In this document: piece after piece, positions 1-17,522 of the stretch
How the letters are laid out: each line of letters starts with the position of its first letter
Position numbering within the stretch: position 1 is the first letter of the stretch
DNA from: Chiloscyllium plagiosum
Lineage: Eukaryota
Length of the DNA stretch: 20,000 bases
NCBI RefSeq assembly: GCF_004010195.1
Contig: NC_057754.1
Span: 11,100,508 to 11,120,507, forward strand
Reading direction: 5' to 3'
Translations under genes and position numbers: made by a program
Notes under the pieces: model-generated
What the model saw: the letters and a program-made list of their open reading frames with translations, nothing else
The model's database searches: none
What the model was told of the DNA's origin: nothing

Positions 1-99
1 TATTCCATTTTCATCCCTATGTTTATTCAATGACTATTTAAATGCCCTTAACGTTGGCAAGTCTACCACTGTTGCAGGCAGTGCGCTCCACGCCCCTAC
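1..99 (-). mobile_element. 3' end fragment of a CR1/HER1-type LINE
   Basis: Reverse complement translates VGAWSALPATVVDLPTLRAFK*SLNKHRDENGI, the typical CR1 ORF2 C-terminus; compare VVNAWNALSVVEVEAESLGTFK near 12660-12730. Confidence 0.8.
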
Positions 100-820
100 A
101 TGGAACGACAGTGGATGATAGAACAGTTAAAAGAAAATCTTGATCAGGTTTGACACGGACAGGTTCCATCCTGGATCAGCAACGAACAGATACAGCATTT
201 TATTCAGGGGAAAGAAACACCCCAAATTATCAGACTGCCAACTGAGGCAACTGACCAAAGTCTGGTTCAACGATGACTGTAAAGGAACTCTTGGGAAAGC
301 TTTAGGGATGATATTAGGACTCCCAATAATCACCGATGACAGAATTGGACTAGGGGTGTTCAAAGTAGAAAACATAGGCACTATTCAGGAGGGCATATGG
401 ATAGGATTTGATGGCACCTTACCGTACACAATGATAACAGGCCCGTATCCAATTTATTTGAATGCCCCATAGAAGCTCGCAATCTGGGCATTGACATAAC
501 TCAGGGTAGCCTACAGAGGAGAAGGAGAATACTGCCTCACAACCCCATTTAGCACATCAACATATCCGAATGGGACAGCCCAATGTCACCAACACCACCT
601 ATTGTATTGGGCCACACATACTTGACAGGATAGGCCTAACTCAGCTGATAAATACACACAAAGGGAGAGAGGGGAATTTAATGCAAGTGAGAAACTTCGG
701 CAAACTCTGGGGGAATATCTGGAGAAGTGTGACACTGAGCCCAAACCCTGCCGGCAATGTTACACCTAATTCAGACCCAGTTGACCACAGCATGTAGAAC
801 CCGTAGAACCTTCACCAAAA
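100..820 (+). pseudogene. Degenerate env/fusion-glycoprotein-like gene of an endogenous LTR retroelement (ectodomain part)
   Basis: Stitching frames gives MERQWMIEQLKENLDQV*HGQVPSWISNEQIQHFI / KLSDCQLRQLTKVWFNDDCKGTLGKALGMILGLPIITDDRIGLGVFKVENIGTIQEGIWIGF / ECPIEARNLGIDIT / RVAYRGEGEYCLTTPF / PNVTNTTYCIGP / EKLRQTLGEYLEK / LHLIQTQLTTACRT. It has Cys residues and N-glycosylation sequons (NVT, NTT), and is followed by a TM segment, PPT and LTR. Confidence 0.7.
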
Positions 821-1230
821 ACCCAGCCTGCAGGAATTCACAAAGGCAGCTTTTGAAAACCCAAAATGTACCATTATACTGTGAGACTCCATGCCGTCAC
901 TTTTGCGTTCAGAATCTCTCTTCCCCTGACTCCTCCCCTGCTTTCCTCTTCCCTCATTCCTTTTTGTTTCTCCATCAATCTATCTTTACTTAAGAGCCCA
1001 CATAAGTCCAAGCAGTGATCTCAGTCATAACAACCAGGAATCAAATCAACTTGTTTGGAGGTAAAGACCTTAGTGTTGCATTGTCAGGTACCCAATGTGG
1101 AACCATGAGTCTGGGATTTATCAAATAAGCCCAATGTGTGACCTCTAGATTATTTAAATCGAAATATAACAATGCAGCACACTATACTATATATATTAGC
1201 AAACTGAGCTCAGTTCAATCATTGACACTT

Positions 1231-1523
1231 GGGGGTGCCACGATGGCTCAGTGGTTAGCACTGCTGCCTCACAATGATAGGGACCTGAGTTCAATTCCAA
1301 CCTTGGGTGAATGTCTGTGTGGAGTTTGCACATTCTCCCTGTGAGTGTGTAGGTTTCCTCTGGGTGCTCTGGTTTCCTTCCACAGTCCAAATGATGTCCT
1401 GGCCAGATGGGATTAGCCTTGGGAAATGCAGGGTTACAGAGATGGGGTAGTTCTGGGTCGGAGGGCCAGTGTGGACCTGATGGGCCAAAACGCCTGCTTC
1501 CGTACTGTAGCAATTCTATGATT
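1231..1523 (+). mobile_element. HE1-type tRNA-derived V-SINE
   Basis: A box TGGCTCAGTGG at 1244-1254, B box GAGTTCAATTCC at 1287-1298, V-domain TGTGTGGAGTTTGCACATTCTCCC...GGTTTCCT, and LINE-derived tail GGACCTGATGGGCCAAA...ATTCTATGATT. Confidence 0.92.
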
Positions 1524-1533
1524 AAAGGTATGA

Positions 1534-1749
1534 CAGCAGATAAATGATGTCAAAGAGCGAATAAAGGAAATTAAATTAAAAACTTGGTGGGAGGATTTCT
1601 GGATCTGGGCCTCGCACCTACAAATCCATCCCTCGGTCTGTATTGTGTCACATCTGTCTGTGTTGTTAATTCTGGTTACCCTGGTATACCTCATCATCCT
1701 CACTGTCAATATGAACCTGGAGAGCTCACTCAACTTCTGGTCTCCCTAA
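1534..1749 (+). pseudogene. C-terminal part of the env-like gene: heptad repeat, Trp-rich membrane-proximal region, TM helix, short tail
   Basis: Open frame absent from the ORF track: QQINDVKERIKEIKLKTWWEDFWIWASHLQIHPSVCIVSHLSVLLILVTLVYLIILTVNMNLESSLNFWSP*. Confidence 0.75.
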
Positions 1750-2039
1750 GCTTATTGAACATTATATCAACATTGTAAATGTTTTGCTAAGCCTAGTAGA
1801 TATTAGTTATCACCTTGTTTGTGTGAAATGTCCTATCCCATTGTTTATGTAAAATATTCTTCAGTTTAATTATGTTCATTCGATTTTTGTTATGAATTTC
1901 TTTTCGTATTTGCCCATTTCGCCAATGTCTTATTTATTTTAATTTACTTCTTTTGCTTGATCATCATTGGGTATGAATTTTTGATGTTCCATTTAAATAT
2001 AGTTTGGTGATGTTTGCTTGATCTTAGGCATTCAGGATC

Positions 2040-2049
2040 AAGAAGAGGG
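2040..2049 (+). promoter_or_regulatory. Polypurine tract preceding the 3' LTR
   Basis: AAGAAGAGGG, then 2 nt, then TGT; lies ~290 bp after the env-like stop codon. Confidence 0.6.
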
Positions 2050-2051
2050 TC

Positions 2052-2960
2052 TGTGGGCGGACAAGCTGCTCAAAATAATTAATTTATTATGGATTTATAA
2101 AGATTTCGACAATAACTAAGGCATACTGCGAAAACTGAGGCAAGCCTTGCCCAGAGTGACTGTGCTAATAAACATGTTGCAAAATCCAGACAGGCTGCAG
2201 CTACCAACAGGTAGTATGTAACTGACCTGGTAGCTGCAGACGACACAATACATATCCAAATTTGGGTTGGAACAGTTGACCAGAATGCGATCGAAATTAC
2301 TATTAGGTCTGAGAACTGAGATTTACATACTAATAAACCAAAGCCTGCAACCCATTCTAAAAAATGAAAGACTTGACAGCAATCTAGGTTTGTTCAATAT
2401 TTTGTGTCAGTTGCATGCATGACATTGTGACCTTTTGCTATAAATTCTGTATCTTATAATCCTGCTCCACAGCTACCTGATGAAGGAACAGCGCTCCGAA
2501 AGCGAGTACTTACAAATAATTCTGTTGGAATATAACCTGGTGTTGTGTGATTTTTAAACTTTGTCCACCCCAGTCCAACATCGGCACGTCCACATCAATC
2601 TATTGGAGGACATTAAAGACCCTCCCAATAGGGCTGAAACAATTACCAAGTACGAGAATTGCCACAACACCACCCTCGGGAGCGGTAACGTGGGATCAAC
2701 CACCAAGTTGCGAAGACACCCCTGAGACTATCTGGAGAAGACCAGATGACTATCATCATGTGGATCAAGGCCAAGATCTTGTGTGGTGGTATATGATCAC
2801 CCAGAGTGAAGTAAAGCACAAGATAGATTTGTAGTGTCAATCATTAGTTTATAGTGTATTTTGTTGTGATACAATTAATAGTGTCAAATAAAATGAATAT
2901 TACTGTTCATTATTATTGAGTCGACTCGCAGTTCTTTTGCTGGATATAAGAGTTAAAACA
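2052..2960 (+). mobile_element. Putative 3' LTR, interrupted by a PLE-derived insertion at ~2310-2598
   Basis: Starts TGT right after the PPT, TATA-like GTATATGA near 2789, AATAAA at 2887-2892, ends ...AAAACA at 2960. No second LTR in the window to confirm it. Confidence 0.55.
2310..2598 (+). mobile_element. Penelope-like terminal fragment with hammerhead core
   Basis: CTGATGA (2477-2483), stem GGAAC/GCTCC, GAAA (2498-2501); the tail TGTCCACCCCAGTCCAACA...TCCACATCA is shared with 9849-9960. Confidence 0.7.
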
Positions 2961-3059
2961 TACTGTGTGGCAGGCACGACAGAAGGATGGACAATGCTCC
3001 TGCAGTCTGCTTCAGGGAGGGGAGTTTAAAGGATCATAACTAGCATTGAGACTCCAATA

Positions 3060-4020
3060 GTACCCACACTCATTCTCTCTCACACAGATAGAAACAGTCT
3101 AATACTCAACTCCTGCACCATCCACTTGGCAAAGGAACTATGGCTGCCAGTAGCTAGTTTAAATACCCTCAGGTCTGACCCATCATTCAGCTCATCCTAT
3201 CAGCTCCTTCGACTTGGGAGTACAACTGCCCATGTTTGCACCACTGAAAGAGGCATTTTTGTGGTATTAGAGAGAGGACATGTGAGAGAAAGCAGCTCAG
3301 TAATTTAGCCCAGACTGCCTCTGTCTATCCCTCTCCTCCCCCACTTCCTAACTTCACACAAACTGGTCCCAAATTTAAAATCCATAAAGAGACAAAGCTG
3401 CAGTATCAAAACAGCAGCAACTACAATGCAGGTTAATAAAGACAATAGGATACAGGCTTCTGCAACCAATGGATACAGATTTATTTCACAAGGGAACACA
3501 GGATTTTCACACAGATCAATACAAGGTATGAGTGGGACTGAAAAGAACAAGCTTCCAGGTTTACTTTTAAGTAGTTTGTGAATTCTACAAATCAATCAAC
3601 TCATTTTCCAAATAAGCAGTGATTACACAGATGTGCTCTCACCCCCCCAACCACCACCCACCCAGTGATTTCTTTAACTGAGCTGGAGTTCATTACTTTC
3701 AGCAGAAACAGACCCCAGTGGATATGGTTCAATAATCAATTAAAAAATAAGAAAATAATCAAACTGCTCTGGCACAACTTAATAGCAGGTATGGGACTTG
3801 AAACCAGAGCTTCTGTTTCAAGGTGAGGGACACTAAAAGGGTGACAAGTCACATCAAAAGAGCAGAGTAAAATACTTGGAACTTTGAACTTCATAAACTA
3901 AATATATCGAGCAGAAAAAATAAGGAAAATATGCTGACCTTTTGACAAACTGCCTCTAGGACTCAATTAGAGTCCACTTCTAGCCACTATGCTTTGTGTT
4001 TTTGACAGGTTTAGCTGAAG
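3060..4020. repeat. Copy 1 of a ~1 kb duplicated non-coding block (paralogous to 14510-15515, same orientation)
   Basis: Collinear shared anchors: CCCTCAGGTCTG, CCAGACTGCCTCTG, AAGCTGCAGT, TTCACACAGATCAA, TTTAACTGAGCTGGA, TTCAGCAGAAACAGAC, GGGACTTGAAACCA, TGTTTTTGACAGGTTTAG. Confidence 0.85.
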
Positions 4021-4163: not shown

Positions 4164-5168
4164 TCACCAGGTGAGATGACTGAGGAAGTCCTTTCCTACA
4201 GAGGGTGCAGGTAACAACTTGTCACCAGTATGTAATCGCTGGTGTTTCAGAAGGTTTTTTGAATGGACAAATCGTTTTCCACATTCGGAGCAGTGGAATG
4301 GTCTCTCTCCAGTATGAATGCGTTGGTGTATTAGCACTGCATATCTGCTTTTAAAGCTCTTCACACAGTGCAAACATTTGAAAGGTTTGTCATCACTGTG
4401 AACCAGTTGGTGTGCCTTGAGTTTGGATAAATGAGAGAATGCCTTCCCACATTCAGAGCAGGGGAATGGTTTCTCCCCAGTGTGAATGCGCTCATGTGTC
4501 AGCAGGTTGGACGAGTCACTGAATCCCTTCCCACATTTAGAGCAAATAATTGGCTTCTCCCCTGAATGAAATCGCAGATGTCTGGACAAATTGGATGACT
4601 GACTGAATCCCTTCCCACACTCGGGGCAGATAAATGGCCTCTCCCCAGTGTGAGTGCATTCATGTTTCTGAAGGTCAGATGACTGAGTAAATCCCTTCCC
4701 ACAAACAGAGCAGGCGTATGGCCTCTCCCCAGTGTGAGTGCGTTCATGTTTATGAAGGTCAGACGACTGAATAAATCCCTTCCCACAAACAGAGCAAGTG
4801 TATGGCCTCTCTCCAGTGTGAGTGTATTCATGTCGTAGAAGTTCAGATGACTGGGTGAATCGCTTCCCACACACAGAACAAATAAATAGCCGCTCCCCGG
4901 TGTGAACTCGCTGATGTGTCTGCAGGTTGGATGACTCACTGAATCCCTTCCCACATTCAGGGCAGATGAATGGCCTCGCCCCAGTGTGAGTGCGTTCATG
5001 TCTTAGACGGTCTGATGACTGAGCAAATGCCTTCCCACAAACAGAGCAGCTGTATGGCCTTTCCCCTGTATGACTGCGTCGATGGGCTTCCAGCAAGCAT
5101 GGATATCTGAATCCTTTCCCACAGTCTGCACATTTCCATGGTTTCTCCAAAGGACAGGTGTCTGCCAT
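4164..5168 (-). CDS. Tandem C2H2 zinc-finger protein with 11 complete fingers; no effector domain seen in this exon
   Basis: 334-aa ORF with 11 CxxC-x12-HxxxH units and TGE(R/K)P-type linkers. In-frame TAG three codons upstream of the ATG; candidate splice acceptor TTTTACAG at ~5484-5491. Confidence 0.93.
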   Translation of the reverse strand: MADTCPLEKPWKCADCGKGFRYPCLLEAHRRSHTGERPYSCSVCGKAFAQSSDRLRHERTHTGARPFICPECGKGFSESSNLQTHQRVHTGERLFICSVCGKRFTQSSELLRHEYTHTGERPYTCSVCGKGFIQSSDLHKHERTHTGERPYACSVCGKGFTQSSDLQKHECTHTGERPFICPECGKGFSQSSNLSRHLRFHSGEKPIICSKCGKGFSDSSNLLTHERIHTGEKPFPCSECGKAFSHLSKLKAHQLVHSDDKPFKCLHCVKSFKSRYAVLIHQRIHTGERPFHCSECGKRFVHSKNLLKHQRLHTGDKLLPAPSVGKDFLSHLTW

Positions 5169-5624
5169 ATCTCTCTATATGTGAAGATCAGCTGACTTCT
5201 CCTCTCCTGACAGGACAGGGCTACAGTTTCTCCCCACTGACAATCGTGTGATGTTATTCAGTCTGTGTAAATGTTCAAGACCTGTCCACAGTTAGTTCAC
5301 TGAAAGACTCACTTGGGTGGATGCGTCTTGGTGCATTTCCAGTCACATCGATGTTTGAAATCTTTTCCCACAAACAGAAAAGATAAACGTTGAAAATCTA
5401 ATGGATTTCAAGTCTTGATGAATTGACTCACTCTCTGATCCTGATGGAATGTTTGTTTTGAATTCTTACTGATAAACGTGCCTCTGTAAAACAAATTTAA
5501 ATCAGAAAAAGGTGAGTCTGAGAAAGAGAACTGTTTAAAACACGAAAGGAGGTTGTGAAAGGGAGTATATTGAATCTGGTAATTTGTGTGCAAGACACTC
5601 CGAATCGGTGACCATGAAAAGTTA

Positions 5625-7945: not shown

Positions 7946-8261
7946 ATTAGATTCAATTAGATTAGATTTCCTATGGTATGGAAACAGGCCCTTCAGCTCA
8001 ACCAGTCCACATCGATCCTCTGAAAAGTAATCTACCCAGACCCAATCCCCTTTGACTAATGCACCTAACACTACGGGCAATTTAGCATGGACAATTCACC
8101 TGAACTGCACATCTTTGGACTGTGGGAGGAAACTGGAGCACTCGGAGGAAACCCACGCAGACACGGGGAGAATGTGCAAACTCCACATAGTCAGTCGCCT
8201 GAGGCAGGAATTGAACCCAGGTCTCTGGAGCAGTGTTAACCACTGTGCCAACGTGCCGCCC
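7946..8261 (-). mobile_element. HE1-type V-SINE inserted in the R2-like relic
   Basis: Reverse strand has A box TGGCACAGTGG, B box GGTTCAATTCC, the V-domain and an (AATCT)n tail. Confidence 0.92.
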
Positions 8262-10845: not shown

Positions 10846-12868
10846 ATGGACTGAGGAGAACCAGGAGGCGGCACAAAAAAGGCTTGGCATATAGGATTAG
10901 GGAGAACCCAAAGGCATTTTACTCATACCTGAGAAATAAGTGATTGATCAGGGAGAAAGTAGGGCTGATCAGGGATAGCGTAGGGAACTTGTGCGTGGAG
11001 TCTGAGCAGATAGGGGGGTAGCCGTAAATGAGTATTTTGCTTCAGTTTTCTCGAAGGAAAGGGACCTTGTGAACGACAACTTTGAGGAGCTGGGATACAG
11101 GCTTGACGAGATCGAGATTGAAGACGTCGATGTGCTGGAAATTTTGGGAAACATTAAGATTGATAAGTCTCCAGGGCCAGACCAGATTTATCCAAAGCTG
11201 CTCCGGGAAGCGAGAAAGGAGATTGCTCAGCCGCTGGCGAAGATCTTTGACTCCTCACTCTCCACAGGAGTCGTACCGGAGGATTGGAAGGAGGCGAATG
11301 TTGTTCCTCTTTTCAAGAAGGGTAACAGGGAAACCTGGCAATTACAGAACAGTCAGTCTTACGTTTGTGGTCAGCAAAGGTTTGGAAAGAATTCTGAGGG
11401 ATAGGATCTATGAATATCTGGCAAAGCATAGTGTGATTAAAGGCAGTCAGCACGGCTTTGTGAGGGGCAGGTCATGCCTCTCAAATTTTATTGAGTTCTT
11501 TGAGATGACAAGACAGGTTGACGAAGGTCGAGCAGTGGATGTGGTGTATATGGACTTCAAGGCATTTGATAAGGTTCCCCATGGTAGGCTTATTCATAAA
11601 GTCAGGAAGTATGGGATACAAGAGGATTTGGCTACCTGGATTCAGAATTGGTTGGCTAACAGAAGGCAAAGAGTGATTGTAGATGGAAAGTATTCTGCCT
11701 GGAGGTCAGTGTTGAGTGGGGTCCCACAGGGCTCTGTTCTTGGGCCTCTACTCTTCGTAGTTTTTATAAATGAGTTGGACGAGGAGGTTGAGGAGGTTGT
11801 AAATTTGCAGATGACACAAAGGTTGGAGGCATCGTTGATAGTATCGAGGGTTATTGCAGACTGCAGTGCGACATGGACAGGATGCAGAGCTGGGCTGGGA
11901 AATGGCAGATGGAGTTCAACCAGGATAAATGCGAAGTGATGCATTTTGGAAGGTCAAACTCGAATGCTGAATATAGGATTAAAGACAGGATTTTTGATAC
12001 TGGAGGAACAGAGGGATCTGGGTGTGCAAGTACATAGATCCCTCAAAGTTGCCACCCAAGTGGATAGGGTTGTTAAGAAAGCATATGGTATTTTGGCTTT
12101 CATTAATAGGGGGATTGAGTTTAAGAATCGTGAGGTTTTGCTACAGCTCTATAGCTCCTTGAAAGTGGAGTCACAGGTAGATAGGGTAGTGAAGAAGGCG
12201 TTTGGTATGTTTTCCTTTATTGGTCAGAGTATCGAGTACAGGAGTTGGGAGATCATGTTGCGTCTGTACACTGTTGGAAAACTGCGTGCAATTCTGGTCT
12301 CCTTCCTATCAGAAAGATTAGATTAGATTACTTACAGTGTGGAAACAGGCCCTTCGGCCCAACAAGCCCTACTACAGGAAAGATACAGAGACTTTGGAGA
12401 GGGTGCAAAGAAGGTTTACCAGGATGCTGCCTGGACTGGAGGGCTTGCCTTATGAAGAAAGGTTGAAAAGGCTCGGACTTTTCTCTCTGGAGAGAAGGAA
12501 GAAGAAAGGAGACCTGATCGAGGAATACAAGATAATGAGAGCAATAGAGAGAGTCAGCAGACTTTTCTCCAGGGCAGGATTGACAGGTACGAGGGGTCAT
12601 AGTTTTAAAATGTTAGAGGAAAGGTATAGAGGAGATGTCAGAGGTAGGTTCTTTACACAGAGAGTTGTGAATGCATGGAATGCATTGTCAGTGGTGGAAG
12701 TGGAAGCAGAGTCATTAGGGACATTTAAGGACTGCTGGACAGGCACATGGAGAGTAGTGAGTTGAGGGGTGCGTAGGTTAAGTTATTATATTTTACATTA
12801 GGATTAAACCTTGGCACAACATCGAGGGCCAAAGGGCCTGTTCTGTGCTGTACCCTTCTATGTTCTGA
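10846..12868 (+). mobile_element. 5'-truncated CR1/HER1 LINE, ORF2 reverse transcriptase with frameshifts
   Basis: [46 protein letters not shown] (shifted frame), ERVQRRFTRM, and a 3' tail GGGCCTGTTCTGTGCTGTAC..TTCTATGTTCT. Confidence 0.96.
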
Positions 12869-13125
12869 TATAGAGAATAACCGAATCATGAGTGTGTTTT
12901 GGGGCTAGAAATTAATGAAGGGTTTCAGGATGGTTCTAAGATAGAATAGCAGATACCCTGGAGTGAGTTACAGACTGGAATGCAATTGCGGAGTTCAGCA
13001 TCATTTCTGTACAGTCACAGATACATAAGAGCGGATTACATGTTAGAATCTTATTGAGGTGGTTTTTAATGTAGAATAACAGATACACTGGAGTGAGTTA
13101 GAGACTGGAAATTAACTGAAGGGTT
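12869..13125. repeat. ~70-bp minisatellite, right part
   Basis: AGAATA.CAGATAC.CTGGAGTGAGTTA.AGACTGGAA at ~12944 and ~13073, plus two diverged units. Confidence 0.8.
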
Positions 13126-13129
13126 TTGG

Positions 13130-14165
13130 TCATTGACAAATTAGGTGCAAACTTGAGGGGTGTAAAATTAGTTGTGTGGGGGTGGGGAGGCTGTAATTGG
13201 ATCGGGGCAAAAATGGGAGGGTGTGCAATGGGGGTAGAGGTAGCATAAAACGTGGAGTGGGTGTAAATTGGTAACAGGCATAAATATGGGGCAGGGACAA
13301 TATTTGGGAGAAGGTCAAAAGTTTGGAAGGGAGGTGGTGAGTGCCAAATCTGCAGGGAGGACATTGGAGGAGGTGCAAAATTTGGGGGCACGATTGAAGG
13401 GGAACTTAAGATTTGCAAAATATGTGGAAGGGCTGCAAATTATGGGGGGCACAAAATTGACATGGATGCAACACTTGAGGTGCATAATTTGTGGAAACCT
13501 GTAAAACATGGGGGTGCACATATGGAGGCATAAAATAGGGAGTGGGGTTAGGAAGGGCTACATAGTATGATGTGGGAGCTGCAAACAAGGGAGTGCAATA
13601 TCATGAGGGTAAATATTTGGGATGCAAAATTTGGCAGGGGCACAAAACTTAGGGGAGTGAAAAAATTGGGACAGGATGCAAACATTTTGGAGGGCTGTGT
13701 AAAATAGTGGATGTTATGTGATTGGGGGCAGTTGAAGACATGGTGGGGTGCCAAATGAGGCAGTGCATAAACTGTGGGGGAAATTGTGGGCACTCAAGAA
13801 GGAACAATACCAGGTGGTGTAAAAGTGGAGAGGTAGGCACAAGATTGGGGACACAAAATTGGGGATGGCGCACAAAGTCTGAGGGATCACAATATTTCAG
13901 AAGGGGCAAAATGTGCAGGGTATACATTCAGGTTTTGTTGGGGGCGGGGGGGAGAAAAGGTGGTTGCAATTTCTGGGTGGAAGGCACAATGAGGTGTCCA
14001 TTTTTGAGGGAATGCAAACCATAGGGGAAGGGTGTACACAATTTGTGTGAGGGTGCAAATTTGGGCACTACAAATTTGGTGGGGCCAGAAAACTTGGGGC
14101 AAGGACTGTATAATTTGGTGAGTATAAAATTTGTGGAGAGGCTGCAAAACATGGCAGAGATCTGC
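13130..14165. repeat. Degenerate G-rich short-period tandem repeat
   Basis: Dozens of variants of GGGGTGCAAAATTTG / GGGCACAAAATT with strong G-versus-C strand skew. Confidence 0.85.
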
Positions 14166-14352
14166 AAAGAGACAGGGAAAAGAGAAAAAGAAACTGGAGT
14201 GGGAAAGAAGAGTCAGAAATAGAAAAGAATGAAAAAGAAAATGTAAGACAGAGGGAATAAAAGACAGGTAAAGAGAGAAAGAGAGACAGACAGGAGACGA
14301 AGAAAAGACAGAGAAAAGGGAATAAAAAAATGTGAGGAGAGAATGGGGAGGG
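14166..14352. repeat. Polypurine (GA-rich) low-complexity tract
   Basis: Almost entirely A/G on the plus strand. Confidence 0.85.
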
Positions 14353-14509: not shown

Positions 14510-15515
14510 CACGCTGTCTCTCACAAGAGCAAGGTCAGACAGAAACCCTTATACTCACCCCGTTCCATTCACACGGCTGCCAGGACCGACATAAAGCACC
14601 CTCAGGTCTGCCACTCAAAGGTGACTCTCTGACCAAATCTCGACTCATCTAGTCAGCTCCCAGCTCTCTCCACCTGCAAAACACCTCCCCCCAGGTATGA
14701 AACACTCCAAGAGGCATCCGTGTGAGGTTAGACAGGGGAAAGAGGAGGTGTGAGAAAAAGCAGCAACTCAAAAGTTTAGTCCAGACTGCCTCTGCCTTGT
14801 CCCTCTCCTCCTCAACCTCCTCACCTCATGCACACTGGCCTCAGACTTGAAATTCACACAGAGACAAGCTGCAGTTTCAAACTGGCAGCAGCCACAACAC
14901 AGGGCCATTTAGACAATGGAATACAGGCATCTACAAACAATGAACACAAATTTATTTCACACAGATCAACACAAGGTGTAAGCGGAATGGAAATAAACAA
15001 GTTAGCCAGTTTACTTTTAATAATATTTTGAGAATTCTTCAAAAGAATCAATCTATTTTACAATGATTACACAGGTCTACTGCGCAAATTAATGTGTTTA
15101 TAGTACAAATGAACTTGAGTTTATTATTCCGCTCTTATTATTCCATTCCCTGCAAACTCCAGATGTTACCTTTAACTGAGCTGGACTTAATTATCTTCAG
15201 CAGAAACAGACAGCAATGGACATGGTTCACTCATCAATGAAGAAATAAGAAGAAAAATTCAAACCACTCTGACACAGCTGATTAGTAGATGGGACTTGAA
15301 ACCACAGCTTCTGTCTGACTGGGAGGGTCACTATACAGACGACAGGACACATTGAGAGTGTGGTGAGCAAAACGTTCAGAACACTGAATTGCATAAATCA
15401 AGATAGCAAGGAGAAAATCAGGGAAACTACGCTGACATTTCAAAAGGCTTAAAACTGAAGTTTAGTTCCAGTACCATGCTTCAAGTGTTCATGTTTTTGA
15501 CAGGTTTAGTTGGAG
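14510..15515. repeat. Copy 2 of the duplicated block; candidate promoter/first-exon region
   Basis: Collinear with 3060-4020; contains a minus-strand donor-like G|GTGAGT at 14553-14559. Confidence 0.8.
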
Positions 15516-16279: not shown

Positions 16280-17003
<724 letters not shown>

Positions 17004-17522
17004 CTGCAGGGAATGGGCTCTGCTCTGAACGATAATGAGGACTTTCATTCTGACAGTTTGGTTTTGTTTCTGCTGGTGTTGTATCTGGATCTGGATAACA
17101 TTCTGGATCGATCGCTTATGGTATTCTTGGGACTACAATGTCCTTTTAAGAACCACTATCTGTGATCTTTCTCCATATTTAGCAAATACAATATTCTGAA
17201 CTTTGACTTCAATTCTAATTTTAGTTAGGAACAAATCATACAATTCAGTTTTTGAAAGGTTCTACTGATTAACATCTCCAATGAGAAATTGCTGATGATT
17301 CCTTGCTGAGAATTCTCAGTGAGCTGTGCATTCCACACAGTGGCCTCTCCATTATCCACGCGGAAGAAAGAGAATGGGAATTGATGGATAATAGTGGCTT
17401 AGTGGTTAGTATTGCTGCCTCACAGCAGGACCCAGGTTCAATTCCAGCCTCGGGTGACTGTCTGTGTGGAGTTTGCACGTTCTCCCAGTGTCTGCGTGGG
17501 TTTCCTCCCACAGTCCAAAGAT

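Follow-up and report, generated by a model that had tools for sequence, protein, structure and literature searches.

Orthoretroviral Env proteins have been assigned to class Ia of the fusion proteins, and foamy virus Env to class Ib (Fernandez et al., PMC11468914). Lokiretroviruses are reported to be absent from cartilaginous fishes, none of six chondrichthyan genomes having been positive (PMC7947760 and its supplement). Wang and Han weighed four scenarios for how retroviruses obtained env; seeing no similarity between the Envs of lokiretroviruses and of canonical retroviruses, they favoured independent gains (PMC7947760, PMC9040795). Endogenous retroviruses (ERVs) resembling snakehead retrovirus (SnRV), or clade Huo, have been described (PMC4422223, PMC6001957), and the SnRV-related ERV lineage I (CmiERV) occurs in the elephant shark genome (PMC4422223). 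The accessible sections of PMC4422223 and PMC6001957 contain no description of the Env fold of SnRV or clade Huo. Within the accessible open-access literature searched (including PMC12583693, PMC11521997, PMC4977317, PMC10435555, PMC8922424, PMC12440569, PMC13709493 and PMC8278194; bioRxiv supplements, Repbase/Dfam and Calcraft 2024 (Cell) lay outside this scope), we found no description of an F-fold Env in SnRV-like ERVs or of the Env superfamily discussed below. The authors of bioRxiv 10.1101/2023.10.26.564294 have announced an analysis of vertebrate ERVs for a separate report.

The locus described here is very probably what is left of the 3′ end of a shark ERV: env, polypurine tract (PPT) and 3′ LTR, all decayed, with the integrase lying a short way upstream of the window. 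The ERV is old and multi-copy and likely belongs to the SnRV-like grade (clade Huo/class III); for its Env, a fusion protein of the paramyxovirus-F/foamy type (class Ib) is predicted. The interest lies in the Env superfamily to which it points, rather than in the locus itself.

The window carries the 3′ end of a decayed provirus

The window, the whole stretch of 20,000 nucleotides that was analysed (G000:C45:11100508-11120507), holds between positions 107 and 2981 the decayed env, PPT and 3′ LTR of a provirus. This provirus continues upstream of the window in the same orientation, with an RNase H piece at −3388, the integrase at about −3140 to −2065 and the N-terminal part of env at about −800 to −110. 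The features within the window are the following.

1..106, strand not applicable: part of an unrelated repeat inserted in env; in four sibling copies the match to the window starts at 107
107..819, plus strand: decayed env with the F-like core, reaching from the end of the first heptad region through beta-rich domains to the start of the second heptad; identified by tblastn with P0001 and P0008 and by the own-genome search
820..1232, strand not applicable: insertion, piece 1, unmatched among the loci compared
1233..1524, plus strand: insertion, piece 2, a dispersed short repeat (81 BLAST rows among the loci compared, self-matches included)
1525..1749, plus strand: env C-terminus with heptad, Trp-rich membrane-proximal stretch (1588-1611), transmembrane helix (about 1633-1704) and shortened tail, from ORF reading and tblastn
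1750..2039, plus strand: untranslated region from env to the PPT, common to sibling copies
2040..2049, plus strand: PPT, 2 nt 5′ of the LTR, position identical in siblings
2052..2981, plus strand: 3′ LTR, TGT...ACA, bounds from sibling LTR ends
2280..2593, strand not applicable: repeat insertion in the LTR, bounds approximate (alignment gap 2275-2594 against the sibling C27 LTR), matching dispersed repeats
2887..2892, plus strand: AATAAA, likely the LTR polyadenylation signal, from sequence reading

The sole match of the window ORF among 59 candidates was P0001, a natural 311-aa protein without a stop, derived from contig sequence. It aligned with 242-745 (45% over 204 columns) and with 1525-1713 (56% over 63 columns). 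Since P0001 spans both stretches without a gap of its own, the approximately 700 bp at 820-1524 are a later insertion, as a first-pass annotation of the sequence had proposed. Piece 1, of about 410 nt, is the unique part of this insertion, and piece 2 is a dispersed SINE-like part, probably a tRNA-derived SINE; further copies of it are present in the window at 8109-8261 and 17395-17507. Upstream of the insertion, the env pieces were found where they had been placed: one env-like frame covers 109-213 and, after a frame change, another covers 227-748. Stops interrupt the reading frame at 470, 497 and 623, and tblastn showed two internal deletions relative to the natural relative.

Two boundaries had to be shifted. 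The first-pass annotation had the env ectodomain start at position 100, but positions 1-106 belong to an unrelated repeat that reaches about 84 nt upstream of the window, and the env match begins at 107; positions 1-99 match another repeat in opposite orientation. Likewise, the proposed TG...CA LTR with AATAAA was recovered, but its end lies at 2981 according to the sibling ends, 21 nt farther than the 2960 first given; the sibling LTRs are about 800 nt long. The ORF at 1534-1749 with the heptad, WWEDFWIW and the hydrophobic helix, and the PPT at 2040-2049, stood as read.

Pfam returned nothing meaningful for five window pieces, the ESM Atlas had no match at 0.9 for the 113-aa window ORF, and Rfam found a single chance-level match in 1-3200. 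No 5′ LTR, gag or family RT of this copy was detected within 80 kb upstream. A weak 28% pol match at −76 kb was considered as part of the copy and rejected, being taken as another ERV. With its 5′ half absent over this distance, three later insertions, stops and frame changes, the copy is dead; it is unable to encode a product and is one ordinary dead fragment among hundreds.

Sibling copies and a younger shark family

The env piece matched the shark's own genome at all 150 loci scored (405 candidates) and the LTR piece at all 40 scored (560 candidates), counts far above chance; the family is multi-copy. The genome-wide search with LTR and env, which the first-pass annotation had suggested, led to other copies with paired LTRs and pol. 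The siblings have the architecture LTR-gag-pol-env-LTR. Among 16 hand-picked regions that were mapped, pol and env lay in one orientation in six, two LTRs surrounded gag/pol in seven, and seven were without env. So many env-less siblings suggest that later spread may have taken place inside cells. The pol order PR-RT-tether-RNase H-integrase is present in sibling L042, where Pfam gave RVT_1, RT_RNaseH, a weak second RNase_H (E 0.033), Integrase_H2C2 and rve.

A second, younger and GC-richer family was found in the shark (L048-L065, L110-L119), with about 33% env identity to the family of the window, long env frames and LTR pairs that are mostly 93-99% alike. Named sources of its homologues are Mustelus, Heterodontus, Pristiophorus and Chiloscyllium. 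The two families share the env type, and L058 of the younger family has the same pol order with a second RNase H at E 6e-8.

A primer site was recognisable in six of eight leaders of the window's family, the best of them matching 17 of 18 nt of the 3′ end of a genomic tRNA-Arg(CCT); ARAGORN called tRNA-Arg(CCT) at all four loci examined, out of five pattern matches. Duplications of 4 bp were seen by eye at the flanks of four readable insertions (one exact, three with one mismatch; other flanks were unreadable), and 4-bp target duplications are likely in this family. The former virus would have primed reverse transcription with tRNA-Arg(CCT) and integrated with a 4-bp duplication. The gag piece of L025 gave weak matches to coiled-coil families (E 0.005-0.012).

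For seven LTR pairs, K2P distances of 0.12-0.32 over 215-755 sites were obtained, from which we conclude that the family is old; the C3 pair was left out because it compares a duplicated segment. Absolute dating was tried and abandoned, as these distances correspond to about 28-73 My with a mammalian rate versus hundreds of My with the shark rate assumed in PMC4422223. A stretch of about 1 kb between integrase and env is kept among family copies (L023:8000-8900 and siblings) and may have held a small accessory frame. One sibling copy also contains, nested in opposite orientation, the epsilon-like ERV pol of a different element (L026:449-2535, minus strand).

A probable placement of the family near SnRV from its RT

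The window copy lacks an RT and is placed through siblings that share its LTR, env and integrase. The RTs of both shark families carry LPQGFHNSP and LLQYVDD, as SnRV does, and not the PFGYxNSP and xYVDD of lokiretroviruses; the published RT alignment has separate motif sets for its loki and SnRV rows (PMC9040795, supplement 2). P0047 and contig L120, both matching the SnRV row of this alignment, served as SnRV anchor, and two contigs found by the loki RT motif and matching its Loki rows served as loki anchors. In a tree of 43 RT rows, built without foamy or Odin RT and without named ERV-L/S references, the seven family rows grouped together (100/100) within a 14-row clade of frog, coelacanth and other pol proteins (100/99), and the two lokiretrovirus-type elements were separated from the family at 100/100. 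When the loki rows were left out, one branch with a support of 97 joined the family with SnRV. With loki as outgroup, SnRV, the window's family and the younger family formed a grade and not one clade. The AU test, on partial, stop-bearing RT rows, did not reject a clade of family and loki (p 0.088). The RT of the family is 40-44% identical to that of SnRV and 33-35% to that of loki, and the nearest pol proteins are named NYNRIN-like. The filing under lokiretroviruses or Gypsy-like elements that had first been given does not fit these RT motifs, the position in the tree or the grouping with frog and coelacanth ERVs; judged from RT, the family is likely of the SnRV-like grade (SnRV, clade Huo/class III) together with those ERVs.

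The other pol domains gave a different ranking. The window integrase is 41-42% identical to loki (97 bits) versus 30% to SnRV (60 bits), and 44-55% to pol proteins that are NYNRIN-like-named or unnamed; the tether scored 52 bits with loki versus 39 bits with SnRV. RT and RNase H are thus nearer SnRV, tether and integrase nearer loki, and the frog/coelacanth group was best in every domain. The integrase tree was poorly resolved, the window integrase having no supported position in it.

Two other readings draw on these scores. In the first, the family would be a divergent lokiretrovirus that earlier shark RT screens missed, and the integrase and tether scores, the dual RNase H of L042 and the homology of its Env to loki env (see below) all point in this direction, as does the AU result above. 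To our knowledge, the dual RNase H is a feature of all retroviruses and of Odin and is therefore not diagnostic of a lokiretrovirus. The family lacks the loki RT signature, of which no exact match was found in the shark's own genome (exact matching only), and the RT separation at 100/100, the long branch of loki env in the env tree and the negative chondrichthyan genomes cited above likewise argue against this reading, which we regard as quite improbable.

In the second, an SnRV-type RT backbone would have received integrase and env from a loki-like donor, and the shared Env would reflect a swap and not ancestry. The disagreement among domain scores, with RT and RNase H favouring SnRV and tether, integrase and env favouring loki, speaks for this reading, and domain shuffling has been documented (PMC7947760). 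Against it, the same frog, coelacanth and unnamed pol proteins were best in every domain tested, SnRV's own Env falls within the superfamily, and the scores of SnRV are lowered by its long branch; frogs, coelacanth and eel also have the env family, which would put any swap far back in time. A recombinant origin is rated as unlikely, though less so than lokiretrovirus membership, and placement in the SnRV-like grade is preferred.

The family shares with SnRV and clade Huo the RT motif type, an arginine-tRNA primer site and the tether plus RNase H. On the weak gag matches of L025, it may also have the coiled-coil type of Gag N-terminal part described as an SnRV feature (PMC2717909). It differs from SnRV in several respects: the primer site of SnRV matches tRNA-Arg(ACG) and that of the family Arg(CCT), the window integrase is only 30% identical, and in the loki-rooted tree the two are not sisters. 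The family Env is also shorter, with an apparent signal peptide of its own in the env frame, where a signal-like stretch is present in the younger family and a decayed hydrophobic stretch in the family of the window. In SnRV, the Env signal peptide is encoded on an exon upstream of gag.

Env homologues and the predicted F-type fold

A natural 578-aa env frame of the younger family was used as query for homologues and returned 13 proteins, 12 of them named from sharks, including the full-length P0008 (714 aa, Mustelus). An env profile search among 1.84 billion representatives gave 68 matches; names were looked up for 18 of these, among which were sharks, a skate, frogs, coelacanth and eel. The long members P0176, P0192, P0159, P0197, P0223, P0188 and P0226 are from frogs, coelacanth and eel, several of them full-length, and the frog members include 16 near-identical Mantella proteins. 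N-terminal Ig V-set domains were seen on some members (P0204 at E 1e-5, P0173 weakly).

P0008 opens with a signal-like stretch and has an N-domain rich in Cys, a linker of Pro/Thr type, RSKR followed by a Gly-rich hydrophobic stretch, heptads and a transmembrane helix, and P0001 aligns with it at 29% over 301 aa (E 2e-54). CX6CC is absent from P0001 and P0008, and P0008 has no TLV_coat Pfam match, which agrees with the non-gamma env that had been read from the window.

The fold was modelled for P0008, a relative 29% identical, and not for the window's own env pieces. The AlphaFold2 model (50 sequences) had a mean pLDDT of 68.6, with 80-96 in the core, and a pTM of 0.46; the N-domain was poorly modelled. 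The best 40 Foldseek matches listed were all paramyxo/pneumovirus F proteins (hPIV3, RSV, henipavirus), with a best E of 4.9e-10. VIA aligned residues of about 174-565 with F at Z 11.6, a range that covers both sides of the cleavage site; TM-scores were low (0.30 by query). From this model, a three-domain class Ib core built from both subunits is predicted for the family Env. Foamy Env was absent among the Foldseek PDB matches listed. In BFVD, baculovirus F, fish filovirus GP and feline foamy Env (rank 19) were also matched. The top BFVD match was the glycoprotein of a fish filovirus (thamnovirus; E 3e-12, model mb813aec4ce68), which suggests that this glycoprotein may have an F-type fold as well.

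In a comparison by sequence alone, the env profile A3 matched foamy Env best in the PDB (E 0.0027), ahead of Langya F (0.011) and HERV-K TM (0.013). The A3 alignment leaves out P0179 and P0193 (Calx-beta proteins, false matches) and P0167, P0168 and P0178 (partial matches in longer chimeric-looking proteins). Top matches in the ESM Atlas were Baculo_F/Gypsy env and Fusion_gly (0.91-0.94). Searches of 50 env members with Pfam F families at E 0.5 gave no match among the 25 of 55 families listed, and phmmer of P0002 and profile A2 against the PDB gave nothing under E 0.4. The ESM Atlas, profile A3 and the P0008 model with Foldseek and VIA bear out the first description, that of a shark endogenous retroelement which had an envelope and whose env is F-protein-like, and the structural comparison with class I fusion proteins that had been proposed as a check led to paramyxo/pneumovirus F.

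The top ESM Atlas match, which has Baculo_F/Gypsy env families on under half its members, and the baculovirus F in BFVD could also be taken to indicate an errantivirus-like member of Ty3/Gypsy whose env is of the baculovirus-F type, or the pseudogene of a cellular membrane protein. The RT of the younger family, however, matched retroviral RTs in the PDB at E 1e-45 to 3e-39 versus 4e-25 for Ty3, and the RT homologue search returned retroviral pol proteins, so that on these matches the RT would not fall within Metaviridae. Together with the second RNase H, the LTR, PPT and primer-site context and the hundreds of decayed copies, RT and architecture largely refute this reading, for which we see hardly any probability.

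For the retroviral Env preferred here, the layout would comprise a signal peptide, an N-terminal Cys-rich attachment-like domain and a furin-type cleavage site before the fusion peptide, followed by heptad A, beta-rich domains, heptad B and the transmembrane helix. By analogy with what is known of class Ib proteins, the basic site would be cut to expose the fusion peptide, the variable N-domain would bind a receptor, and the heptads would refold to a six-helix bundle in an F-like membrane merger. The predicted three-domain core would be common to foamy Env and paramyxo/pneumovirus F, and foamy Env TM was the top PDB match of the family profile, whereas identity is only about 10-14%. Foamy Env also differs in having an extra domain inserted between the subunits, while that of the family sits N-terminal to the core, spike-like.

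An Env superfamily including lokiretroviruses and SnRV

Scored against the family profile, loki env reached 73 and 64 bits (best of 200 shuffles, 5.8) and SnRV env 15 bits (best of 200 shuffles, 1.0). HHalign gave a probability of 98.6 for loki env (E 8e-16, 375 columns) and of 94.7 over 272 columns for SnRV env. A model of SnRV Env (pLDDT 65.9) matched F proteins with a best E of 3e-7; its alignment consisted of family members and the model is thus open to bias, so that the SnRV Env core, alignable with that of the family, can be called predicted F-like. In the env tree the deep order was not resolved and long-branch warnings were raised, with loki env on its own long branch (2.26) apart from the family. 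These profile comparisons argue that one Env superfamily joins lokiretroviruses, SnRV and the shark, frog, eel and coelacanth elements.

The family and lokiretroviruses both have an F-related Env that carries a basic cleavage site, a fusion peptide, heptads and a transmembrane helix (for lokiretroviruses, PMC7947760 and PMC9040795), and both have the dual RNase H; a NYNRIN/CGIN1-like integrase may be a further common trait. The family differs in RT signature and tree position, and its Env carries an extra N-terminal domain of about 150 aa that loki Env is without.

An F-type env combined with an RT that is more of the snakehead than of the loki type suggests that such envelopes are likely older and wider among retroviruses than reported. 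We tentatively extend this, at somewhat less than even probability, to an F-fold Env superfamily across lokiretroviruses, SnRV, foamy viruses and a large unnamed grade of ERVs from sharks, rays, coelacanth, eel and frogs. On the same reading, the first retroviral envelope would have been a class Ib fusogen of the F type whose N-terminal attachment domains, Cys-rich or Ig-like, could be exchanged, and gamma/beta-type Env would have come later. If true, this would overturn the published view, in which it is preferred that lokiretroviruses and canonical retroviruses gained Env independently, and the family, with its SnRV-type RT and loki-leaning integrase and env, would be a bridge between the two. 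An ERV grade that includes SnRV, is neither foamy nor loki and has an F-fold Env related to that of loki would fill a gap in the picture of independent gains and of classes Ia and Ib, and would make the question testable through Env-core phylogeny. These Envs all stay below the Pfam envelope cut-offs and would therefore escape ERV surveys that rely on motifs. The suggestion that the element was possibly undescribed can be kept for the env type but not for the lineage, since SnRV-related ERVs had already been reported in a chimaera genome (PMC4422223).

A candidate domesticated env and other elements

A single intact ORF of 739 codons of the same Env superfamily was found at G000:C6:90924374-90926590 (plus strand; L125). 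It was the sole match at E<1e-40 in a strict first pass (61 of 349 candidates scored), is 99% identical to P0150, a protein of Chiloscyllium punctatum named for an Ig-like domain, and is preceded by a splice-acceptor-like site and a signal-like stretch. Three queries gave no pol match, and no LTR-like pair was present around it within 20 kb. On its sequence, L125 is a candidate domesticated F-type env.

Elsewhere in the window, the purine-skewed stretch at 11073-14300 (plus strand) with a 288-aa frame is likely a CR1-type LINE remnant, judging from its sequence. Two C2H2 zinc-finger arrays with an 84-nt period lie in opposite orientation at 4167-5174 (minus strand) and about 16300-16980 (plus strand) and are flanked by duplicated blocks near 3395-3758 and 14866-15256, which we read as a zinc-finger gene cluster.
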